DNA of 64,000 bases from Leptospiraceae bacterium (GTDB taxonomy: Bacteria > Spirochaetota > Leptospiria > Leptospirales > Leptonemataceae). Each line of letters opens with the position of its first letter. The first letter of the stretch is position 1. The position numbers were made by a program, and so were the translations under genes. The notes beneath the pieces are model-generated. The model saw nothing but the letters and a program-made list of their open reading frames with translations, had not been told where the DNA came from and ran no database searches. The DNA lies in the NCBI GenBank assembly GCA_040217195.1, contig JAVJNR010000008.1, positions 416,001 to 480,000 on the forward strand, read 5' to 3'. Shown here piece by piece: positions 30,700-54,700 of this stretch.

Positions 30700-32154
30700 A
30701 TGCTCTTTAATACAGCTATATTTCTAATTTTCTTTGTATTTATTTATCTTGTTTACTGGAGCGTTCGCGGGCAGGCCAGGCTCTATGTAGTTGTACTTTC
30801 CTCCATTTTTTTCTACGCGTTCTGGTCGCCTCCCTTTGCAATCCACTTTCTATCTATAGTACTTCTGAACTTCCTGTTCATCCTGCGAATTAGAAATTCG
30901 CAGGCCAAAAAGGGATGGCTCATTGCGCTGGTTCTGCTTGATGCGACCAACCTATTTTTCTTTAAGTACTTCTACTTCTTTTTGCGGATCCTGCTGGATG
31001 TAACCGGATTAAATCTATTTGAACGACAGGAATTCAATCAGCTTCTGATAGATGAATTCTCAGTAAAAGGCATTGTACTTCCTCTTGCTATTAGCTTTTA
31101 CACATTTCAGTTAATCGCCTATGCAGTGGACACTTACCGGGGAGAAATCGAAAAAAGGCACAGCCTGATCCAATATTTAACATTCATATTGTTTTTTCCA
31201 CAACTGGTGGCAGGACCTATCGTCCGCCACAGCGAATTCTTCTATCAAATTGAGGATCCTCATTCCATAAAACCGGACCATCAAAAATTGATATCCGGAA
31301 TCTATCTTCTTATCCAGGGAGTGGTAAAAAAGATTCTGATCGCAGATAATCTGGTGCCGCACACTACATTGATTTTTGGGCAACCGGAACGATTTGACTG
31401 GTTTACACTTGTGGCCGGTTGCTTCGCATTCGGAGCACAGCTGTACTGCGATTTCTCCGGGTATACCGATCTTGCTCGTGGTCAGGGCAAGCTACTTGGC
31501 ATTGAACTACCGGAAAATTTCTTTGCTCCCTATTTCAGCCGCTCGGTTCGGGCTCTGTGGAATAACTGGCATCGAACTCTTACCTCCTGGCTTAGAGACT
31601 ATGTTTACATAGCCATGGGCGGCCAGTCCGTATCCTTTATTCGAACTCAGTTCAATGTAATTCTTACCTGGGCCATGGTAGGGCTATGGCATGGGGCCTC
31701 TTACAATTATCTACTTCTGGGCGTCTATCACGGTTGCTTTATCGCGATGGAAATTCAATACAGAAGGCTTCAAAAACAGGAAATACTTCCGGTTCTATCC
31801 CAGAGATTTCCCTGGCTGCAAAAACTTCAGGCCTTCACAGGACCTATTTATACACTAACAATTCTTGGCGCTGGATTCGTATTGTTTATCACGCCGGACA
31901 TGGAAACAGCAGCCACGATGTATGATCGTATGTTTACCGGTGCCACAGGCGAGCGATCCGTCTACACTGGCTGGTTCTTCAGTGCATTTCTGGCTGCCAT
32001 GATTTTCAATGCTTTTCAGCTAAAGCAGTACAGTCCAGGAAAGCAAAGAGCCTGGTTGTATTATCTGGCTCTTTTTGTTCTGGGCTTTCTGGTTGCAGCA
32101 TTGCTGGGTGCTTTCGCTCCGGGTTCAGAAGACTTCTTTTACTTTAAATTTTAG
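30700..32154 (+). CDS. MBOAT-family O-acyltransferase (AlgI/DltB-like)
   Basis: LPLAISFYTFQ, FFPQLVAGPIVR, YCDFSGYTD, WHRTL..WLRDYVYI, GLWHGA. Confidence 0.93.
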   Translation: MLFNTAIFLIFFVFIYLVYWSVRGQARLYVVVLSSIFFYAFWSPPFAIHFLSIVLLNFLFILRIRNSQAKKGWLIALVLLDATNLFFFKYFYFFLRILLDVTGLNLFERQEFNQLLIDEFSVKGIVLPLAISFYTFQLIAYAVDTYRGEIEKRHSLIQYLTFILFFPQLVAGPIVRHSEFFYQIEDPHSIKPDHQKLISGIYLLIQGVVKKILIADNLVPHTTLIFGQPERFDWFTLVAGCFAFGAQLYCDFSGYTDLARGQGKLLGIELPENFFAPYFSRSVRALWNNWHRTLTSWLRDYVYIAMGGQSVSFIRTQFNVILTWAMVGLWHGASYNYLLLGVYHGCFIAMEIQYRRLQKQEILPVLSQRFPWLQKLQAFTGPIYTLTILGAGFVLFITPDMETAATMYDRMFTGATGERSVYTGWFFSAFLAAMIFNAFQLKQYSPGKQRAWLYYLALFVLGFLVAALLGAFAPGSEDFFYFKF

Positions 32155-32171
32155 GCAGAGGCAAATGCGAT

Positions 32172-33323
32172 ATGGATTTTATTCGTTATAAAATACTTTT
32201 CATTCCATTACTGATGATTCTGGGACTTCTGGCTGCGGATCGACTATTCAACAATCCAGACATTGTAAAATACACAGTGCGATGGACAAACTTCGAAAGA
32301 GAGAATTACCAGTTCAAAGAAATGCTCTTTCGGCAACTTCTGGGTGAGGCATCGGATCGAGAAAAAGAAGGCCTCAAGCTGGGACTGTTGTTTGGCACTT
32401 CCAGGATCATGGAATTTGACAATACAGAAATAGACCGATTGACCGGGCAGCATTATACCTACAATTTTTCAGCACCGGCCGCCACCCCATCCTATTACTT
32501 TTACTGGCTGGAACGGATTCAGGAAGCAGGACTGCTGGACCAGGTGGACTTCGTTTTTTTGGAATTCGACCCCACTATACTGAATCGCACAAATACTAAA
32601 GTATCTCTGGCCTATTCCTATGATCCTGATTTTGTACTGGAGAATCTTGAACTGGACGAATCCAGACCACTAAACATTTGGGATGCGGAAGGAGCCGGCT
32701 TTAACGTGGATGAGGCGGAAACTTTCTTTGTGAAGCAGTATATCTCATTGAGTAAATATCCGATCAACCCGGCTAACATCCTGGAAAATCAAAAGACTAC
32801 CCTGGTTCCCACCGGCTCGGGGGATCTCAAAGCACTGCACAAGTGGGAAATCAAACAGGAGCTAATCCGAGAATCCAGAGAAACGTTGAGAAAGCATCGG
32901 GGCGGACGCCCTACTTACGCTCAGCCCGATCCGGATCCACAAGACCTGGCATCCCATGAGAGGATTACCAGTAGAATGCATATTCAGTATCTGGTTCTGG
33001 CACCATCGCAGATGATATTTTTTAAACGGACTTTGAGGTTGCTTGCAAGCCAAAGAAAAGAGGTAATTCTATACTGGCCTCCTTCCACTCCGGGTCTTCG
33101 CCAGGCAATGCAGGAATACGATTTATTCGATCGTCACAGAGCTGAACTAATTTCTCTGACGCAATCTCTGGAAGAAGAGTATCCCGGTGCTAGATTTACA
33201 ATTTTAGACCCAATGGAAATCGAAGGATTTCCCTGTCTGGACCTGGTGGACTCATTCCATCTAAAGAGCATGTGCTTTCCCGCTGTGGCCCGTCAGGTAG
33301 TGCAAATCCTGGAAAAAAGGTAA
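32172..33323 (+). CDS. DUF1574-like / SGNH-like partner of the MBOAT
   Basis: N-terminal TM, FGTSR, YNFSAPAATP, C-terminal DSFH (DxxH); directly follows the MBOAT gene. Confidence 0.7.
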   Translation: MDFIRYKILFIPLLMILGLLAADRLFNNPDIVKYTVRWTNFERENYQFKEMLFRQLLGEASDREKEGLKLGLLFGTSRIMEFDNTEIDRLTGQHYTYNFSAPAATPSYYFYWLERIQEAGLLDQVDFVFLEFDPTILNRTNTKVSLAYSYDPDFVLENLELDESRPLNIWDAEGAGFNVDEAETFFVKQYISLSKYPINPANILENQKTTLVPTGSGDLKALHKWEIKQELIRESRETLRKHRGGRPTYAQPDPDPQDLASHERITSRMHIQYLVLAPSQMIFFKRTLRLLASQRKEVILYWPPSTPGLRQAMQEYDLFDRHRAELISLTQSLEEEYPGARFTILDPMEIEGFPCLDLVDSFHLKSMCFPAVARQVVQILEKR

Positions 33324-33349
33324 GTCAGCACCGGCTGATTGAGAAGCGG

Positions 33350-34900
33350 TCAATGAATGGATCGATTTTGACCTTTCCAGAAAGGGTCTCTCAATTGCCT
33401 GCGGAGTACTTTGCCGGAGGGATTTCTGGGAAGAGCTTCAATCATTTCCACACGACGGGGCCGTTTGTACTGGGCCAGAGCTTCCGGTTTCCAGGACCGT
33501 AGCTCCGCTGCATCCATGCTACGATCTGAAACAATAAATGCGCAGACTGCCTCTCCAAATTCATCATCCGGTATGCCCACAACCGAAACGTCCCGTATGT
33601 CCGGATGCTCTGCCAGAAAGCGTTCCACCTCGATGGGATAGATTTTTTCTCCTTTGGATATGATCAGATCGTTCTTACGATCCAGTAGATACAGATAACC
33701 ATCCGAATCCAGATATCCAATGTCTCCCGAAGCGAACCAGCCGTCCTGAAAACATTCTTTGTTTTCCTCCGGTCGATTCCAGTAGCTATCCACAACGGTT
33801 GCTCCTCGCAGAAATACTTCTCCGGATTCTCCTGGTTTGCAGATTTCATCTCCTGAGCGAATCTGAATTTCAATTCCTGCAGCAGCCTTTCCAGCCGAGG
33901 CACTTCGATCCGGCGTTCCGGTCCTTGCTGCAGCCCTGGTGGATGAGGAATGCACCTGAAGTATGTCCAGATGATCCTGTACAGAAAGTATCGTTGCCAC
34001 TCCGGTGGTTTCTGTTAGACCATAGGCCTGGGTATAATCGCATTTCAACCTGGCATGGGATGCTTCCAGCAAAGGACGGGAAATGGGAGAGGCTCCGTAG
34101 ATCAAATGCTTCAGAGATGAGAAATCGGCGGTGGCTGCGTCCGGATGATTGATTACAGCCTGCTGCATGGCCGGAACCATCAATCCATGACTGATCTGAT
34201 GCGTCTCGATGGCCTGGATAACGGCCCCTGGATCAAAGCGAGGAAGCAAAACATTGGTCGCCCCTCCCAGAAAACCCATAAATAGAATACCTACGCCGGC
34301 GATATGGAAAAAAGGGGCACAGACCAGGTTGACGGATCCAAACCCAAAGGAAGGTGTTTCCAATCTGAGCTGTTCCAGCAAGGCCAGGATATTGGCATGA
34401 TTCATGGGCACGCCTTTAGGATGACTGGTTGTGCCCGATGTGTAGAGCTGAAGAAACGTCTGTCCGGCCTCCGGTAGAACCGGATTGTCCATTGCTGACT
34501 CGCTGCGTCCGGACTCCCAGAAATCGCCGGGAAGATTAACAACCTGGCGAGAAGACTCTTCCACCAGAGGTAGAAAATCCTTTCCTGCGAAAACGATCTG
34601 ACAATCCGCATCATCCAGAATGAAATCTGTTTCTTCTCGTGATAAACGCCAGTTCAGAATTACCGGAATTACACCTGCGAAAGCGCAGCCCAGAATTAGC
34701 TGCACAGCAGAGGCACTGTTGTATTCCAGAAGACCCACTCGATCGCCGGATTTTAGATCCATGCTCCTAAGTCGATGAGCCATGTAATGGGCCTTGTTTC
34801 TGAGCTCCCCGTAGGTGGCACTGGCCTGTCCGACCATGGCCGTTCTATCCGGACTGAGACGGGCCCGATATTCCAGAACCTCGATCAATGTACTATGCAT
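33350..34900 (-). CDS. Long-chain acyl-CoA synthetase / ANL adenylating enzyme
   Basis: YTSGTTSHPKG, AYGLTET, SGDIGY, IYPIEVE, LPRNPSGKV. Confidence 0.92.
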   Translation of the reverse strand: MHSTLIEVLEYRARLSPDRTAMVGQASATYGELRNKAHYMAHRLRSMDLKSGDRVGLLEYNSASAVQLILGCAFAGVIPVILNWRLSREETDFILDDADCQIVFAGKDFLPLVEESSRQVVNLPGDFWESGRSESAMDNPVLPEAGQTFLQLYTSGTTSHPKGVPMNHANILALLEQLRLETPSFGFGSVNLVCAPFFHIAGVGILFMGFLGGATNVLLPRFDPGAVIQAIETHQISHGLMVPAMQQAVINHPDAATADFSSLKHLIYGASPISRPLLEASHARLKCDYTQAYGLTETTGVATILSVQDHLDILQVHSSSTRAAARTGTPDRSASAGKAAAGIEIQIRSGDEICKPGESGEVFLRGATVVDSYWNRPEENKECFQDGWFASGDIGYLDSDGYLYLLDRKNDLIISKGEKIYPIEVERFLAEHPDIRDVSVVGIPDDEFGEAVCAFIVSDRSMDAAELRSWKPEALAQYKRPRRVEMIEALPRNPSGKVLRRQLRDPFWKGQNRSIH

Positions 34901-34942
34901 AACTAATCCCTATTCGATTTTCTCCGGTCTAATTCTTCGGGA

Positions 34943-35977
34943 CTACGGTCTATTGATTTCCTGATACAGGGCGGCTCCGCCCGAATAGCCGGCCCCGGCT
35001 GCAGTAAGCAGAACTCTTGCCCCCGGAAATAACTTTCCCTCTCTGCGAGCCACATCCAGGGCAAAAGGAAGGGTAGCAGACGTTGTATTTCCGGTATAAT
35101 CGATGGTGATTACAGTCTTATCCATGGAAATGCCCAGTTTCTGTCCCACCGTTTTCATGATTTTTAGATTTGCCTGATGTGGAATGAAGCAATCGATTTG
35201 ATCCAACGATATATCTGCCTGCTCGCAAACCAGAATACATAACTCGGACATGGCCTCCACTGCATCTGCGAATATCTGATGACCATCCACAGTCATTTTC
35301 ACCGAATGCAGGCCCTTCTTAACAGTCTCCTCCGAAGCAGGCATGGCACTGCCTCCTGCAGGCGTATAGAGATTCAGGGCTCTGGATCCATCGGACCAGA
35401 GTTCGCAGCCAAGCATACCGCCTGAGGCCTCCGTCCTGGAAAGTATGATGGCGCCCGCCCCATCGGCAAAAATGGGGCCCAGCCGCCTGTCCCGGGCCTG
35501 GATAAATCGAGACTTGATGTCTGCTCCAATGACCATTACATGATTCAATCCGCCAGCCACCAGACGCACTCCATGGTCCAGACCAAACAGAAAACTGGCG
35601 CAGGCCGATTGCTTATCTTCTGCCGGGCAGTCCGCTCCAATGAGATTCTGTATGCGATTTGCCGCTGCAGGAGAGGTCCAGTCCCCGGTAGTTGTACAAA
35701 GGATGATATGATCCAGATCCGTAGCCTTCAGCCCGGCATTCTCCAGAGCCAGAAGGGCAGCAGATGCACCCAGGTCGCTGGTTGCCAGATTCGAATCCGC
35801 AAAATGTCTCTGCCGCACACCCACATGACTTTCAATCCATTCAGGTGTTGTATCCAGGGAACGATCCCTGATTAGAATCTCATTGTCCACGGGACTTGAA
35901 GGCAAAAAGCCACCGGAACCGGAAATGAATATTCCGGACGGATAACCCGGTCTAATTCTGGTGTATCTTTGTGCCAT
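34943..35977 (-). CDS. 3-oxoacyl synthase III (FabH-like) #1
   Basis: Cys-His-Asn triad: SACASF, IPHQAN, TGNT; IFADGAGA. Confidence 0.9.
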   Translation of the reverse strand: MAQRYTRIRPGYPSGIFISGSGGFLPSSPVDNEILIRDRSLDTTPEWIESHVGVRQRHFADSNLATSDLGASAALLALENAGLKATDLDHIILCTTTGDWTSPAAANRIQNLIGADCPAEDKQSACASFLFGLDHGVRLVAGGLNHVMVIGADIKSRFIQARDRRLGPIFADGAGAIILSRTEASGGMLGCELWSDGSRALNLYTPAGGSAMPASEETVKKGLHSVKMTVDGHQIFADAVEAMSELCILVCEQADISLDQIDCFIPHQANLKIMKTVGQKLGISMDKTVITIDYTGNTTSATLPFALDVARREGKLFPGARVLLTAAGAGYSGGAALYQEINRP

Positions 35978-35986
35978 GGCGTTTAA

Positions 35987-37249
35987 CTAATCTGCAATAA
36001 TGAAAGCTGTATTTCCAGGAGGATGCTCATTTAGTCTCATTCGACCATGAATAGTTCCAATCTCTTCAAAGGAATGAATGGCTCCCAGATAGGGAGCCAA
36101 TTTTCCATCCTGGATCAATTGATGTAAGTAATCGATGTCGGGCCGACCGGCAAAATGGGAGCCCTGAAGGCGCTGACTACTTGAGCAGAAAAGCCCTCCT
36201 TCCATTTGAGCCATATAGCCGGTGGTGCCTGCACAAATCACAACCATTCCGCCGGAAGAACAACAATACTGAGATATTGGAAGAGTATTCTGCCCTGGAT
36301 GCTCCAATACAATTTCAGGACTGACACCACCTGTTAATCGTAATACTTCTTCTCGAAAAGCATCTGCCTGTTTGAACCAGGAGCGGTCCCGAGCTCCAAC
36401 GGGCAGACCCGGCACTATGAATTCCGAGCGATTGATGGCCACCGCACCCAGAGATTCTACCACCGACTTTTTTTCCTGCGAATTCACCACTGCCACAGGT
36501 AGGCCTCCGCAGCTTCGCACAATCTGAATGGCCATGGAGCCAACTCCACCGGCACCGCCCCATATAAGTACAGGCATACCCCGAGAAACGGTATTGGGAG
36601 ACCAGTGAAGTAGCATTCGAACGGCTGTGGCCCCGCAAAGCAGATATACGGCACTTTGATTCCAATCCAGGGCCTTTGGCCTGGGATAGAGTTGCCAGGA
36701 TTTCACAAGACAGAACTGAGCAAAGGAGCCCCAGTTAGTCTCATAGCCCCAGGCTAGCAGGCTGGGAGCCATGGAAGGATCGCCTCCGGACTGAATGTAT
36801 GGATCGGATGAATCCCAGCTGGCAGGAGACACAACCACTTCATCACCTTCATGAAAATTCTGAACGCTGGAACCGGTGGCATAAACTATCCCTGCAGCAT
36901 CAGATCCTCCTATGTGAAAATCCTCACCGGCTCCCTGCTTCATGCGCATGGAAATCACATCCACTGGATGACCCAGGGAAGCCCAGACATTGTTGTAGTT
37001 CAGACCGGCCCTCTTCACAGCTACCAGAACTTCATCCGGTCCAGGCAAAGGTACATCCACAATTTCCATTTGAAAGGCACTGGAAGGATCTCCATACCTC
37101 TCTCGCCGAATCACCTGGGCATGCATCTTTTCCGGAATGGGTCCGGGCCCTGGCAATTCTCCCAGGGGCAACGGTGTAGCTACTGATTCCATTTGATGGT
37201 GGGGCTCCCGGTTGCTGGTATGAGGCGGATTGAAAAGTATATCAATCAT
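35987..37249 (-). CDS. ccr: Crotonyl-CoA carboxylase/reductase-family enoyl-CoA carboxylase
   Basis: AGLNYNNVW, HIGGSDAAG, WGYETNWGSFAQF, VLIWGGAGG, EHPG, CAGTTGY, LQGSHFA. Alternative start MESV at 37192. Confidence 0.88.
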   Translation of the reverse strand: MIDILFNPPHTSNREPHHQMESVATPLPLGELPGPGPIPEKMHAQVIRRERYGDPSSAFQMEIVDVPLPGPDEVLVAVKRAGLNYNNVWASLGHPVDVISMRMKQGAGEDFHIGGSDAAGIVYATGSSVQNFHEGDEVVVSPASWDSSDPYIQSGGDPSMAPSLLAWGYETNWGSFAQFCLVKSWQLYPRPKALDWNQSAVYLLCGATAVRMLLHWSPNTVSRGMPVLIWGGAGGVGSMAIQIVRSCGGLPVAVVNSQEKKSVVESLGAVAINRSEFIVPGLPVGARDRSWFKQADAFREEVLRLTGGVSPEIVLEHPGQNTLPISQYCCSSGGMVVICAGTTGYMAQMEGGLFCSSSQRLQGSHFAGRPDIDYLHQLIQDGKLAPYLGAIHSFEEIGTIHGRMRLNEHPPGNTAFIIAD

Positions 37250-37376
37250 AATTCAATATTAGGATTCAGATAGAAAACACCGTCCGGTCCCTCAAATCCA
37301 GATCCCCGGAAAGAAGCCGAGCTGTAACAGAGAAAAAAATTCTATCTTTGCAGATATAGAACGGAACAAACGAGTC

Positions 37377-38423
37377 ATGGGCGGATTAAAACTTACACCG
37401 GTTCCGGGAGTAGCACTCATGGGAGCCTCCAGCGCCTTCTCTGCCTCAGGTACCTGGGTAAGTAACGAAGATATTCATGCCCTGGTTTATGGTCCTGACT
37501 GGAGGGAGGCCATGGCAATAAAAGGCCTGGACCCGGATCATCCGGCGAAGAAAGGGTTTAGCCGCAGACACTGGACCCTGCCTCCGGAGTCGCCCAGGAC
37601 TGGACAGGAAGAGAATTCGGCGGATCTAATGCAACAGGCTGCAGAAAAAGTGCTCAGTGAAACCGGAATGTCGATTCGAGAAATAGATCTATTCATCGCC
37701 GTTTCTACCACGTCGCCCAGGTATACATCGTCCCTGGGTACTCTGGTAGGCGGCCGCCTGGGATTTCAGGGCCCTGCTTTCGAAATGAAATCTGGCTGTT
37801 CCAGCACAATCTATGCTCTGAGCATTGCCTATCAATTCCTGGCCGGGGCAGCCCGTTCAGTATTGATCGCATCTGCTGAAACTCTCAGTCGTGTAATCTC
37901 AATAAACGGTCCATTTATCTATGCGGCCGGAGATGGAGCAGGAGCTATTCTATTGCAGAAAGTGGATGATCCAGGCAGGGGACTTGTAACTGGATTTCTG
38001 AATTCTGATGGAAGCTATGCGGATTCCATGGGAGTTCCGGGCATCCTGCCACCTACCAGGCAGGCCCTGGATCAGCAGGAATATTACATGGGCCAATCGG
38101 ATTCCCTCTCCTCCGATGTGAAACCGTTCTGGATGCAATCCCAGCAATCCTTAATTGAATCTGAAAATCGCAGCTTTCAGGACATCGACCTTTACATACC
38201 TCATCAGACAAGTAATTCCATTCTTGATCTGCTGGCTCAATCCATGGGATCCCACTCGAATAAACTTTTCCGATGCCTGGACCGTTACGGCAATTGCGGA
38301 TCGGCCACTTTACCCATTGCTCTGGCTGAAGCTCTGGAAGGGCAACAGGCATCCGGCCGGCGAATTCTATTAAATGCAGTGGGTGGTGGATTGGCCTGGG
38401 GCAGCCTTCTAATCAATACTTAG
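37377..38423 (+). CDS. 3-oxoacyl synthase III (FabH-like) #2
   Basis: Triad SGCSS, IPHQ, YGNCGSAT; GDGAGA; VGGGLAWG. Confidence 0.88.
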   Translation: MGGLKLTPVPGVALMGASSAFSASGTWVSNEDIHALVYGPDWREAMAIKGLDPDHPAKKGFSRRHWTLPPESPRTGQEENSADLMQQAAEKVLSETGMSIREIDLFIAVSTTSPRYTSSLGTLVGGRLGFQGPAFEMKSGCSSTIYALSIAYQFLAGAARSVLIASAETLSRVISINGPFIYAAGDGAGAILLQKVDDPGRGLVTGFLNSDGSYADSMGVPGILPPTRQALDQQEYYMGQSDSLSSDVKPFWMQSQQSLIESENRSFQDIDLYIPHQTSNSILDLLAQSMGSHSNKLFRCLDRYGNCGSATLPIALAEALEGQQASGRRILLNAVGGGLAWGSLLINT

Positions 38424-38462
38424 TGACTATTCGGGAAATCATAACAGGACTGAAAACATTCC

Positions 38463-39221
38463 ATGCATGGAAAAACTGTAATCATTCTGGGCGCCAGCCG
38501 CGGCATTGGCGCTGAAACAGCAGAACTGCTGGCGGCCAGGCAGGCCCGGATATTGCTGATCGCAAGAAACGGCGGCGAGCTGAAAAAACTTCTGGATTCA
38601 TTACCCGGCACGGATCATTCGCATCTGGTACTGGACCTGGCCGAATCAGAGAGTGCCCACTCCATCATGGAACACTGTAAACAGTGGGGCATCCCGGACA
38701 TAGTTGTGTGGAATTATTTCGCCAGATCGGATTTGGGGCGACTGAGCCAATTACAGGCTAATTCTCTAAGCGGTGCAATTAGCAGAAATTGCGAAGTTCC
38801 TCTGGCTCTGTATCGCGGTTTTCTGCCCGAACAGAAGAATCAAAAATTCGGTCGATGGATCCTGGTGAGCTCGGCCATTGCAGGTCTGTCAGGCCCGGGA
38901 CAGGGAGTTTACGGCGCAGTTAAATCAGTTCAGGAATCCTTGATCCGTACCATAGCAGTAGAACAGGGACACAATGAAATAACCGGAAATATCGTCCGAC
39001 CCGGATTCATAGATACTCCAGGCGTTCAGCAAAACTATGATTCGCAGACCAGGCAAAAGCTGGCTTCCATGAATTTACCAGCCAGAGCGGGCAGTCCGAA
39101 AGAAGTGGCTGCAGCCATTGGCTATCTGGCCTCAGACCAGGCAGGTTTCGTAAATGGAACAGTGCTTCCAGTGGACGGAGGAATGAATCTGGGCTGGTTT
39201 CTGCGAAGGGAAAGCAAGTAA
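38463..39221 (+). CDS. SDR oxidoreductase (FabG-like ketoreductase)
   Basis: GASRGIG, VSS, YGAVK (YxxxK), PGFIDT, VDGG. Confidence 0.9.
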   Translation: MHGKTVIILGASRGIGAETAELLAARQARILLIARNGGELKKLLDSLPGTDHSHLVLDLAESESAHSIMEHCKQWGIPDIVVWNYFARSDLGRLSQLQANSLSGAISRNCEVPLALYRGFLPEQKNQKFGRWILVSSAIAGLSGPGQGVYGAVKSVQESLIRTIAVEQGHNEITGNIVRPGFIDTPGVQQNYDSQTRQKLASMNLPARAGSPKEVAAAIGYLASDQAGFVNGTVLPVDGGMNLGWFLRRESK

Positions 39222-51584: not shown

Positions 51585-53606
51585 ATGTCCAAAAAAGACC
51601 ATGTGATCTATGATAAAGAAGGCAATCCCAGCCGGGATCGGCCATGGATCTTTAGAACGTACGGTGGCCATACCAATGTCTGGGAAACCAACAAACTCTA
51701 CCGCGAAGGTCTGAGTCGAGGTCAGACCGGACTGTCCATAGCATTTGATCTTCCCACCCAGTGCGGTTACAGCTCCAGCCATACCCTGGCCAAACCGGAA
51801 GTAGGCAAGGTTGGAGTTCCCATCAACTCCCTGGACGATTTTCATGTACTCTTCGATCAAATTCCAATCGAAGAAATGAACACTTCCATGACCATTAACG
51901 GCACAGCCATGTGGCTGCTTGCACTGTACGTGGCCCTGGCCAGAGAAAAAGGCGTGGAACTCAGCCAGCTTCAGGGAACTACCCAGAACGATCTGGTAAA
52001 AGAGTATTTAGCTCGAGGAACTTACATATTCCCCCCGGAAGCGAGCTTTCGACTGATTTCCGAGATGTATGAATATTGCATCAAAGAAATCCCAAAATGG
52101 AATCCATCCAACATCTGTTCCTATCACCTTCAGGAGGCTGGAGCTACTCCGGCCCAGGAACTGGCCTTTGCACTGGCCAATGCAATTGGTCTACTGGATA
52201 TAATCAAAGAACGAGGAAATCTTGAAAAAGAGCAGTTCGAGGAAGTAGTGGGTCGCATTAGTTTCTTCGTCAACGCAGGCATTCGCTTTGTGGAAGAAAT
52301 GTGTAAGATGCGAGCCTTCACCGAACTCTGGGAAGAGATAACCCGGGATCGGTATGGCGTAGATAATCCGAAGTTTCGCAGATTTCGCTACGGAGTTCAG
52401 GTTAACTCTCTGGGCCTTACCGAGAATCAGCCGGAGAATAATGCCTGGAGAATCCTTATGGAGACCCTGGGTGTGACTCTTAGCAAGAATGCACGATGTA
52501 GAGCTCTGCAACTGCCTGCCTGGAATGAGGCCCTATCCCTGCCCCGTCCCTGGGACCAGCAATGGTCCCTGCGGTTGCAACAAATCATGGCCTATGAAAC
52601 AGACCTTCTGGAATATCCAGACCTGTTCGATGGAAGCAAAGTTGTAGAATCCAAAGTTTCTGAGCTCAAGGATGCCACAAGAAGCGAAATCGACCGAATT
52701 CTGAAAATGGGTGGAATACGCTCCGCTGTAGAATCCGGTTATATGAAATCTGCACTGGTCAAATCCATGTCCGAGCGAATGAGCCGTATAAATACCGGCG
52801 AGCAGATCGTAGTAGGCGTGAACAAGTGGACCGAAGCAATCGATAGTCCTCTGCTTGGTGGCGAAGATGGTGGTGTATTCAAAGTGGATGCAGAAAGTGC
52901 AGATCGCACCGTACAATCCATGGAAGAGACCAGGTCCAAACGCGATCCGCAACGAGTTAAAAAGGCCCTGGAGGATTTAAAGAAAGCAGCCAATGAAGGA
53001 ACCAATTTGATGGAGCCTTCTGTGGAATGTGCTCTGGCGCGTGTGACCACCGGCGAATGGGCCGATGCACTTCGCCAGGTATTTGGAGAGTACAGACCAC
53101 CCACAGGGATTGATGGACAGAAGCTTTCCCTGGAAAACGATAGAGTAAATGCTCTTCGCAAGCGAGTGGAAGATTTTACAACAAAAGCCGGCCACAGACC
53201 TCGTATCGTGGTGGGTAAACCTGGTCTGGACGGGCATAGCAATGGGGCTGAAATGATTGCAGTGTCTGCAAGACATACAGGTTTCGATGTTATCTATTCT
53301 GGAATCCGTCTGACTCCTGAGGAAATAGTCCAAAGTGCTGTAGAAGAAAATGCAGATATAATTGGCATTTCCGTTCTGTCAGGATCGCATATGGAGCTGG
53401 CAGATCAGATCATAGAGGAATTGAAGAAAGCCGGAGCCTCGGATCATATTCCCGTGGTCTTTGGAGGAATCATTCCAAAAGCAGATTTCGAGGCACTGAC
53501 CGGCCGAGGAATTCGCAAGATCTTCACTCCTTCCGATTTCGAACTAATCGATATCATGGAAAAGATTTTCGATATAGTTGAAAAGAATCAGGCCGCCCTG
53601 GTTTGA
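51585..53606 (+). CDS. ecm: Ethylmalonyl-CoA mutase (MeaA), B12-dependent
   Basis: RPWIFRTYGGH, GQTGLSIAFDLPTQ, YGVQVNSLGLTE.QPENN, LQLPAWNEAL.LPRPWDQQWSLR; B12-binding GKPGLDGHSNGAE. Confidence 0.93.
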   Translation: MSKKDHVIYDKEGNPSRDRPWIFRTYGGHTNVWETNKLYREGLSRGQTGLSIAFDLPTQCGYSSSHTLAKPEVGKVGVPINSLDDFHVLFDQIPIEEMNTSMTINGTAMWLLALYVALAREKGVELSQLQGTTQNDLVKEYLARGTYIFPPEASFRLISEMYEYCIKEIPKWNPSNICSYHLQEAGATPAQELAFALANAIGLLDIIKERGNLEKEQFEEVVGRISFFVNAGIRFVEEMCKMRAFTELWEEITRDRYGVDNPKFRRFRYGVQVNSLGLTENQPENNAWRILMETLGVTLSKNARCRALQLPAWNEALSLPRPWDQQWSLRLQQIMAYETDLLEYPDLFDGSKVVESKVSELKDATRSEIDRILKMGGIRSAVESGYMKSALVKSMSERMSRINTGEQIVVGVNKWTEAIDSPLLGGEDGGVFKVDAESADRTVQSMEETRSKRDPQRVKKALEDLKKAANEGTNLMEPSVECALARVTTGEWADALRQVFGEYRPPTGIDGQKLSLENDRVNALRKRVEDFTTKAGHRPRIVVGKPGLDGHSNGAEMIAVSARHTGFDVIYSGIRLTPEEIVQSAVEENADIIGISVLSGSHMELADQIIEELKKAGASDHIPVVFGGIIPKADFEALTGRGIRKIFTPSDFELIDIMEKIFDIVEKNQAALV

Positions 53607-53622
53607 TCCATCAGGGAATACA

Positions 53623-53657
53623 AAGGCGATGCTTCCATTATCCGAAGCATCGTCCTT
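53623..53657. other. Intergenic stem-loop between ecm and meaB
   Basis: AAGGCGATGCTTC...GAAGCATCGTCCTT; no U-tract, possibly an mRNA-stabilising hairpin. Confidence 0.45.
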
Positions 53658-53689
53658 GAGCATCTTTAGCTCAGAAGGAAACTCTGTAA

Positions 53690-54700
53690 ATGCCCGACCC
53701 CATAGAATTGATTCCCGCAGCCTTTAATCGGCAGAAATTCGCCATTGCACGGCTGGTCTCTCTGTTCGAAGACCCAAGACCGGAAGCAGCCCTGAAGCGA
53801 AAGGAAGTTCTAGAAACAATGCAATCCTCCCGAAAGTCCCGTAGAGGAATGTTTCTGGGTTTTACAGGTACCCCCGGCGCTGGAAAATCCACTCTTGTAG
53901 GCGAACTGGCCAACAGGTTCATCCAGCAGAATCCGAATAAGAGCCTGGCAGTACTGGCAGTTGATCCATCTTCCCACGTTTCTGGTGGTTCCATTCTGGG
54001 TGATCGCACCAGGGTTCGATTTTCCCTGGGCGATGATCGATTGTATTTTCGCAGCCAGGCCTCAGATCAGGAGCTGGGCGGAATCAGCCGAACGACGTTT
54101 TCCGTGCTGCGGCTGCTCTATCATATCTTTGATGTAATCATCATTGAAACCGTTGGAATAGGCCAGAGCGAAATTGAAATTCAGCAAACCGCCGATCGAG
54201 TGTTCCTATTGCTGCAGCCACTGGCCGGAGATCAGATCCAATTTATGAAAGCCGGTATCATGGAGATCCCGGATACATTTATCATTAACAAATCGGATGA
54301 AAAGGAAGCAGCAGAACGCACATTCCATGCCCTCAGAGCCAGTCTGCAATTGATTCGCCCGGGGGAAGCCCGGGTTCCCATCTTTCGCACCAGCGCCCTG
54401 ACCGGTATGGGGCTCAACGAGGTTCTGGATTACTGGAATTCTCTATTCAAAGAACGCACTGACCCGGCCGCGCTGGATGCATCTTTGTACCGACGAGAGG
54501 TTTACTATTTTGAGAAATGGGTGAAGGATGAACTGGGTCGCCAGGGACTGCGAATGCTGGCAGACCTGGGCGGGCCCAGGCATCTGATGGACAGTGCAAA
54601 TGGATTCGACGGAGCTCAAAAAGCCATTCTGGAAGTGGTAAATCGCTCTTTGAGCCAGCTGGAATCAGAAGTGACAGAGTCAATTACAGAGAAATCCTGA
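53690..54700 (+). CDS. meaB: MeaB/ArgK-family GTPase chaperone of B12 mutase
   Basis: GFTGTPGAGKST, LAVDPSS..SGGSILGDRTR, ETVGIGQSE, Q.MKAGIMEI, INKSD. Confidence 0.93.
   Translation: MPDPIELIPAAFNRQKFAIARLVSLFEDPRPEAALKRKEVLETMQSSRKSRRGMFLGFTGTPGAGKSTLVGELANRFIQQNPNKSLAVLAVDPSSHVSGGSILGDRTRVRFSLGDDRLYFRSQASDQELGGISRTTFSVLRLLYHIFDVIIIETVGIGQSEIEIQQTADRVFLLLQPLAGDQIQFMKAGIMEIPDTFIINKSDEKEAAERTFHALRASLQLIRPGEARVPIFRTSALTGMGLNEVLDYWNSLFKERTDPAALDASLYRREVYYFEKWVKDELGRQGLRMLADLGGPRHLMDSANGFDGAQKAILEVVNRSLSQLESEVTESITEKS

Follow-up and report, generated by a model that had tools for sequence, protein, structure and literature searches.

Why would a spirochaete carry, beside a pair of KAS III genes, a carboxylating ECR whose substrate pocket departs from that of primary metabolism? 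The question is raised by a 64,000-nucleotide stretch of a Leptospiraceae bacterium genome (contig JAVJNR010000008.1, positions 416,001 to 480,000), hereafter the window. The original prediction for this locus, made from the sequence alone, held that the ECR is not the housekeeping ethylmalonyl-CoA enzyme. It described a natural variant with Pro, Ala and Phe at three pocket sites (P/A/F, against C/I/F in primary-metabolism enzymes) that makes butyl- or hexyl-type malonyl-CoA for the adjacent KAS III enzymes.

The ECR gene lies in a seven-gene block

The block spans positions 30700-39221 of the window and codes for an MBOAT, a DUF1574 protein, an acyl-CoA ligase, KAS III-A, the ECR, KAS III-B and an SDR (Table 1). 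The ligase, KAS-A and ECR genes run leftward and the KAS-B and SDR genes rightward from a shared spacer, while the MBOAT and DUF1574 genes converge on the ligase gene. In the same-genus genomes G035 and G038 a WD40 gene directly follows purC and the block is absent, and in G039 purC is directly followed by the next gene, indicating that all seven genes were gained or lost together. A window-type MBOAT (81-87%) was found in the same three of six same-genus genomes that hold the P/A/F ECR. The empty site makes it unlikely that the MBOAT is a chance neighbour, and the membership of MBOAT and DUF1574 in the block, which the original prediction overlooked, is the best clue to its product.

Table 1. 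Features of the window discussed in the text.
Feature	Position	Strand	Remarks
MBOAT acyltransferase	30700..32154	plus	ends FFYFKF (FxYxxF acyl shuttle); WHG motif
DUF1574 SGNH-clan protein	32172..33323	plus	predicted DltD-like; S77/D360/H363
Acyl-CoA ligase, long-chain fatty acid-CoA ligase type	33350..34900	minus	PRK06187 450 bits, cutoff 476; atlas features
KAS III-A	34943..35977	minus	PRK09352 281.9 bits, cutoff 249; triad C126/H267/N297
ECR gene	35987..37192, longest ORF to 37249	minus	TIGR01751 profile, structure model, dN/dS
Phe366	36152-36154 (TTT)	minus	kept; Gly362 in CinF
H365	36155-36157	minus	CO2-binding His of ECR
GLFCSSSQ, residues 352-359	36173..36196	minus	stands where RYxWMxQK is usual; Arg/Tyr pair lost
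E170	36740-36742	minus	CO2-binding Glu of ECR
Ala166	36752-36754 (GCC)	minus	Ile in primary Ccr, Ala163 in CinF
Pro142	36824-36826 (CCT)	minus	Cys in primary Ccr, Pro141 in CinF
N86	36992-36994	minus	CO2-binding Asn of ECR
Divergent intergenic region	37193..37376		conserved AT-rich element about 37234-37254
KAS III-B	37377..38423	plus	rare family; triad C141/H276/N306
FabG-like SDR ketoreductase	38463..39221	plus	S137 and Y150 in 39/39
meaA-named mutase	51585-53606		cluster members named 'protein meaA'

Scanning of genome contigs yielded 55 loci, of which 37 (L042-L078) were analysed and 18, at 24-30% identity, were left out; 29 of 38 loci from a metagenome scan were also analysed. The five core genes (ligase, KAS-A, ECR, KAS-B and SDR) are all present in 28 of the 37 genome loci and are joined by an MBOAT gene in 24 of these 28, the loci being mutually related and the counts not independent. 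This co-occurrence supports the predicted link between the ECR and the KAS III pair. DUF1574 was found in 6/37 loci, lying between the ligase and ECR genes in L054 and L068, and an ACP-like ORF with a WDS motif, giving no Pfam match at 1e-4, in 10/37. Six of the nine incomplete loci are cut by contig ends, L076 consists of KAS-B alone, and L065 and L078 have no nearby ECR. The named hosts belong to Leptospirales (among them Leptospira ainazelensis and L. ainlahdjerensis), Chitinophagales and Flavobacteriales, with a single Acidimicrobiia. The cassette is uncommon: a sample of 300 other Spirochaetota genomes turned it up in one. Pairwise distances of cassette genes correlate (Spearman 0.71-0.89, a value inflated by kinship). 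A literature search, with most subscription journals outside its coverage, returned no paper on the combination of ECR, KAS III and MBOAT.

Additional genes accompany some loci. A fatty acid desaturase gene lies between the ECR and MBOAT genes in one Leptospirales lineage (L066:1000-2016, L075 and L120), which also carries several copies of a 400-aa protein without a Pfam family. A PAL-like aromatic amino acid lyase gene and a second CoA ligase gene follow the ECR gene in 5/37 loci (L053:13768-16961, L056, L061, L063 and L064). These loci form one Chitinophagales clade and so represent one event; the pocket of their ECRs is G/A/Y and position 204 is Val, and the added genes point to cinnamoyl-CoA and to either a benzyl branch or an aryl starter.

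The ECR is almost certainly an accessory copy

In a profile search the ECR scored 419.5 bits against TIGR01751, above the cutoff of the crotonyl-CoA carboxylase/reductase family (378.55). The best fold matches of its structure model (mean pLDDT 90) were AntE, 9kva, 4gi2 and CinF; sequence identity was 46-47% with AntE and 9kva, about 53% with Leptospirales Ccr and 32% with CinF. The best sequence match among solved structures, 9kva, is itself P/I/G, with Asn replacing the catalytic Glu (WGYN). Translation probably starts at the ATG at 37192 and not at 37249, giving 401 aa, because residues 1-19 of the longest ORF have pLDDT <50 and the DNA there holds an AT-rich element that is conserved in relatives, most of which have ORFs starting downstream of it; orthologue P0002 is also 401 aa long. 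This element (37234-37254) is conserved in the divergent spacer across four genomes and is likely a promoter or operator, and a scan of the spacer for the sigma-70 consensus returned 0 sites. Comparison with locus L042 gave a dN of 0.145 and a dS of about 2.1 (dN/dS about 0.07), similar to purC, indicating that the ECR gene is maintained and arguing against its decay; several other dS values were saturated.

A second, canonical ccr, which the original prediction had proposed looking for, was found in the source genome at G000:C1:157681-158937. It codes for a C/I/F enzyme with RYLWMRQK, 53% identical to the ECR. The window also contains the meaA-named mutase gene, of the ethylmalonyl-CoA mutase type, followed by meaB (51585-54700); we take MeaA to be ethylmalonyl-CoA mutase. 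No match to isocitrate lyase was found in the source genome (93.7% complete). The meaA and meaB genes, the canonical ccr and the lack of an isocitrate lyase match point to an ethylmalonyl-CoA pathway in this spirochaete, a pathway that PMC5798300 mentions as possible in Leptospira.

A ccr match was detected in 36 of 41 other genomes of the family, and a P/A/F copy in only 4 of these 36, each adjoining cassette genes. Since the best ccr matches of 29 family genomes comprise 25 C/I/F enzymes with RY[L/H]WM[R/H]QK and 4 P/A/F enzymes without this motif, the P/A/F pattern is not due to chance. In a quick tree of 66 rows, with 29 of the 31 cassette ECRs (two short ones omitted) and 35 of 119 homologues (SH-aLRT support, no bootstrap), the C/I/F enzymes form a clade (96% SH-aLRT) that contains no cassette ECR, and the window ECR falls in a seven-row P/A/F clade with 100% support. 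Its pocket and its place outside the vertically inherited C/I/F clade thus set it apart from the housekeeping Ccr, as had been predicted. Given the canonical paralogue, the meaA-named mutase and the missing isocitrate lyase match, we regard the ECR as an accessory copy with near certainty. The cassette ECR is the only ccr in 5/5 Bacteroidota genomes tested, in which mutase matches reach at most 41% identity to the window MeaA.

The ECR pocket very probably admits substrates longer than crotonyl-CoA

By HMMER alignment, ECR residues P142, A166 and F366 correspond to C130, I153 and F358 of the primary-type enzyme 4gi2 and, through a cassette relative, to P141, A163 and G362 of CinF (4a0s); AntE has A/V/V at these sites. 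The Pro and Ala codons and the Phe of GSHFA were therefore read correctly in the original prediction and stayed on the same sites under formal alignment. Pocket spacing in 4gi2 (23, 205) is consistent with that of C146/I169/F373 in Caulobacter Ccr (23, 204), an enzyme compared by its residue numbers. The available part of PMC8360864 cites the Caulobacter substitutions C146P/I169A/F373G as opening the site for large substrates, in agreement with the prediction.

The ECR also retains N86, Y169, E170 and H365, which match the four CO2-binding residues N81/F170/E171/H365 given for KsCcr in the available text of PMC10966969; Tyr replaces the KsCcr Phe, as it does in 4gi2 and AntE. These positions (with Y or F at 169) are retained in every cassette ECR that covers them. 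The predicted conservation of the CO2-binding and catalytic motifs thus holds, with the correction that it is the second N of NYNNVW that orients CO2.

Ala occupies the Ile site in all 31 distinct cassette ECRs, across two phyla; the Cys site holds Ala (13), Pro (11) or Gly (7), and the Phe site Phe (21), Tyr (8) or Gly (1), with one missing. Cys occupies the first site in 109 of 119 ECR homologues, 108 of which also have Ile at the second, a group chosen by its Cys, so that the ECR tree is the fairer control. Judging from these alignments, Ala is the signature of cassette ECRs and Pro one of three small options. The substrate range of the window ECR very probably extends past crotonyl-CoA. 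The CinF G362F variant reportedly loses activity on octenoyl-CoA, and Phe366 likely limits chain length in the ECR. Since CinF has Gly where cassette ECRs keep an aromatic residue, C5-C7 enoyl substrates are expected over C8, and propyl to pentyl branches would be favoured over hexyl. A natural P/A/F variant linked to KAS III enzymes therefore stands, by alignment and co-occurrence, but its hexyl-type product is doubtful.

The segment GLFCSSSQ takes the place of RYxWMxQK, as the original prediction had it. In KsCcr, according to the available part of one preprint, the CoA phosphates are bound by R352 and Y353, the adenine being held by K296, R303 and Y328, and changes at CoA-binding residues increase Km and lower kcat two- to three-fold (bioRxiv 10.1101/607101). 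Mapped via 3hzz, the ECR has D296, L303, Y328, G352 and L353 at these positions and thus lacks K296, R303, R352 and Y353, which may weaken or alter its CoA binding and is a caveat on its activity. The RY pair is broken, with variable replacements, in the seven-row P/A/F clade and in the L054/L068/L111 clade, both of which are long-branched, and its Arg is retained in 23 of the 24 other cassette ECRs. Loss of the pair is most simply read as a relaxed demand for fast, coupled turnover. An ACP-bound substrate was rejected as its cause, since Bacteroidota cassettes with an ACP keep RY, and the two Leptospirales clades that have lost it lack a cassette ACP.

The KAS III pair, SDR and ligase

KAS-B belongs to a rare family; of 7996 candidates, 38 were relatives at E<=1e-40. 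The Cys-His-Asn triad is conserved in 42/42 KAS-A sequences at each site and nearly so in KAS-B (Cys in 48, His in 46 and Asn in 49 of 49). Both enzymes have a small polar residue (N/S and T/S) and no Glu at the site of FabH Phe87, where a small residue opens the channel for long acyl starters and which is presumably the position of the catalytic Glu of LstB and NltB. The KAS pair consequently fits long acyl starters and decarboxylative chemistry. LstB and NltB are described, in the available parts of PMC12141560 and bioRxiv 10.1101/856955, as lacking the triad, needing the Glu and condensing without decarboxylation. With their triads intact and no Glu, KAS-A and KAS-B are expected to use a malonyl-type extender, which would explain the presence of the ECR.

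KAS-A and KAS-B are the only FabH-like genes of the source genome. A housekeeping FabH role for KAS-A was rejected because no match (E<=1e-20) was found in three of six same-genus genomes (93%, 78% and 77% complete) and because the source genome has a type I FAS. The latter (G000:C4:523011-532952, L147) is 3313 aa long and is adjoined by two larger ORFs. It gave the sole long-alignment Pfam ketosynthase match in the source genome (93.7% complete), in which neither a modular PKS able to use the extender nor a stand-alone FabF- or FabD-like gene was found. The ligase scored 450 bits against PRK06187 (cutoff 476) and 140.2 bits against PRK09274 (cutoff 478), which we take to be the OleC family. 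Its A4 His, replaced by Ser, Ala or Asn in 22/34 family members and reportedly missing from OleC as well, is kept in the window ligase. The FabG-like SDR has invariant Ser and Tyr residues (39/39).

The MBOAT and its predicted DUF1574 partner

All 33 cassette MBOATs have WHG and a C-terminal FxYxxF, a motif in which the Tyr hands acyl groups on to an SGNH protein according to the available part of PMC12148441. That part describes only small donors for such MBOATs, acetyl or D-alanyl; a branched C10-C20 chain as donor is without precedent in this literature, which counts against the route proposed below. The motif is not specific to the cassette, since all 10 other MBOATs of the source genome share it. 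The 11 MBOATs of this genome, all ending in FxYxxF (e.g. C8:2798-4261 and C4:608205-609629) and one of them 1041 aa long, are a large unexplored acylation repertoire. Cassette MBOATs derive from at least three lineages (FastTree, long branches), suggesting from their sequences that they were recruited to the cassette repeatedly.

DUF1574 is listed as an SGNH-clan family without known function in the available part of PMC9487903. In 13/13 sequences G75, S77, D360 and H363 (Ser and DxxH) are invariant, and the ten best folds for the structure model were all DltD, distant at a TM of about 0.4. DUF1574 genes adjoin several of the many Leptospirales MBOAT genes, and in the window block the MBOAT His, FxYxxF and the Ser and DxxH of the partner are all present. 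In the Bacteroidota cassette loci, no SGNH partner could be recognised next to the MBOAT. An esterase bearing a C-terminal domain for type IX secretion is found repeatedly near Bacteroidota cassettes L049, L052, L053, L055, L056 and L061-L063, and could replace the missing partner.

A proposed route and its alternatives

We propose, with confidence that approaches but does not reach an even chance, a PKS-free route in which alkylmalonyl-CoA is built into a 2-alkyl-3-hydroxyacyl group and transferred onto an envelope polymer in the manner of Dlt. The ligase would make an acyl-CoA, which host beta-oxidation would convert into a 2-enoyl-CoA. The ECR, with its catalytic residues in place, would add CO2 and hydride to give propyl- to pentyl-malonyl-CoA, and the KAS III pair, with both triads in place, would condense this extender with an acyl-CoA, with loss of CO2, into a 2-alkyl-3-oxoacyl thioester whose ketone the SDR would reduce. 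The acyl group would then be loaded on the C-terminal Tyr of the MBOAT and passed by the DltD-like DUF1574 protein to an acceptor in the envelope, in keeping with the motifs and the predicted fold. A bolder version is more tentative: a mobile pathway that crossed between Spirochaetota and Bacteroidota, fixes CO2 into alkylmalonyl units, uses the KAS III pair to make a mycolate-like alpha-branched beta-hydroxy acyl chain and places it on a Gram-negative envelope polymer via a Dlt-like MBOAT/DltD shuttle, its branch tuned by the ECR pocket and including benzyl, from phenylalanine, in one Chitinophagales lineage.

Four alternatives were weighed against this route. KAS III and SDR could instead build the enoyl-CoA, as RevR does, with the ECR acting last and the MBOAT transferring an alkylmalonyl half-ester, a charged hydrophobic group. 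RevR (a FabH homologue), RevS (a ligase) and RevT (a CCR) indeed supply alkylmalonyl-CoA, according to the available part of PMC5187497, the smaller donor would suit an FxYxxF MBOAT better, and the ECR and MBOAT genes adjoin in many loci. However, no dehydratase accompanies the cassette, two conserved KAS III with intact triads exceed the need of one elongation, and the two KAS, the SDR and the ligase persist in L065 and L078, where no ECR lies within 8 kb; we find this version unlikely, even though these two loci also count against our own route. The core genes might alternatively make a diffusible small molecule, either a pyrone or a dialkyl beta-lactone of the nocardiolactone or lipstatin kind, with the ligase closing the ring and the MBOAT decorating the product or being incidental. 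Two KAS III-like enzymes, an SDR and an adenylate-forming enzyme do parallel nltABCD and lstABCD, the A4 His is replaced in most ligases of the family, and L045 and L074, though complete for the five core genes, show no MBOAT within 8 kb of KAS-B, which again counts against our route. Yet the ligase scores far below the PRK09274 cutoff and nearer to that of PRK06187, and the window copy keeps its A4 His; both KAS are triad-intact without the Glu of triad-less LstB and NltB, and MBOAT and DUF1574 were gained or lost with the block. A beta-lactone or pyrone thus seems rather unlikely.

Some of the ECR evidence can be turned another way: the enzyme may be short-chain, giving an ethyl or propyl branch, or mainly an enoyl reductase, or may use another carrier, its Pro and Ala and its lost CoA-binding residues reflecting relaxed demand. 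Retention of Phe366 and Leu204 and the loss of the RY pair in two long-branched clades would fit, as would L065, which has no ECR within 8 kb of KAS-B, together with genome G041, in which the only ccr found is C/I/F and would allow an ethyl branch. Ala166 is nevertheless fixed in 31/31 cassette ECRs over two phyla, the CO2-binding tetrad is intact, dN/dS is low, and a host with a C/I/F ccr would need no second crotonyl-specific copy, all of which makes this improbable. The canonical paralogue and the empty site already go most of the way to refuting the least credible alternative, in which the ECR would be a redundant housekeeping Ccr serving the ethylmalonyl-CoA pathway. In its favour are a TIGR01751 score above the cutoff and the presence of meaA 14 kb away, but the P/A/F copy was found in only 4 of 36 ccr-matching family genomes, each time beside cassette genes, and G035 has the flank on the meaA side but no cassette.

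A natural Pro/Ala ECR is by itself modest news, CinF having both residues already. As a P/A/F enzyme with a C/I/F control in the same genome, the window ECR is a natural test of the three-residue specificity rule, and the predicted cytoplasmic location of all five core enzymes allows a one-pot test of the chemistry. If the Dlt-style route is true, it predicts a KAS III that accepts alkylmalonyl-CoA, a substrate and first function for the uncharacterised DUF1574 family and, in environmental spirochaetes, two named Leptospira species and many Bacteroidota, a branched modification of the envelope not described before.

Comparison with known systems

In the papers covered, the products of long-chain ECRs go to polyketide synthases, and the groups transferred by FxYxxF MBOATs are acetyl or D-alanyl; the block joins the two. 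With CinF, a 2-octenoyl-CoA carboxylase/reductase, and the Caulobacter triple variant, the window ECR shares Pro and Ala at two of the three sites and the CO2-binding residues, and with CinF also the fold (TM 0.83). It differs from CinF in having Phe instead of Gly at the third site, in lacking the RY pair, in a sequence nearer to AntE, 9kva and Leptospirales Ccr, and in the absence of any modular PKS found in the source genome to take its product. The reveromycin genes revR, revS and revT likewise bring together a FabH homologue and a fatty acyl-CoA ligase as well as a CCR (PMC5187497, available part), whereas the window block has two KAS III and an SDR, hosts among Leptospirales and Bacteroidota and, as likely consumer, a KAS III or the MBOAT and not a PKS module.

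LstABCD, NltABCD and OleACD resemble the block in their two KAS III-like genes, SDR and adenylate-forming enzyme, and in the alpha-branched beta-hydroxy intermediate that would be expected. Those systems condense without decarboxylation, through the Glu of a subunit that has no triad, and their last enzyme is a beta-lactone synthetase; the block differs in its two intact triads, its ECR and a ligase outside PRK09274. Dlt (DltA/B/C/D/X), PatA/PatB and AlgI/AlgJ share with it the catalytic His and FxYxxF of the MBOAT, an SGNH partner predicted to be closest to DltD, and a ligase, the ACP of 10/37 cassette loci being a further likeness to Dlt-type systems. Unlike them, the block has its own acyl-building enzymes and a predicted branched fatty acyl donor in place of acetyl or D-alanyl. 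By analogy, the block would work like RevRST joined to a Dlt-type shuttle while being a member of neither.
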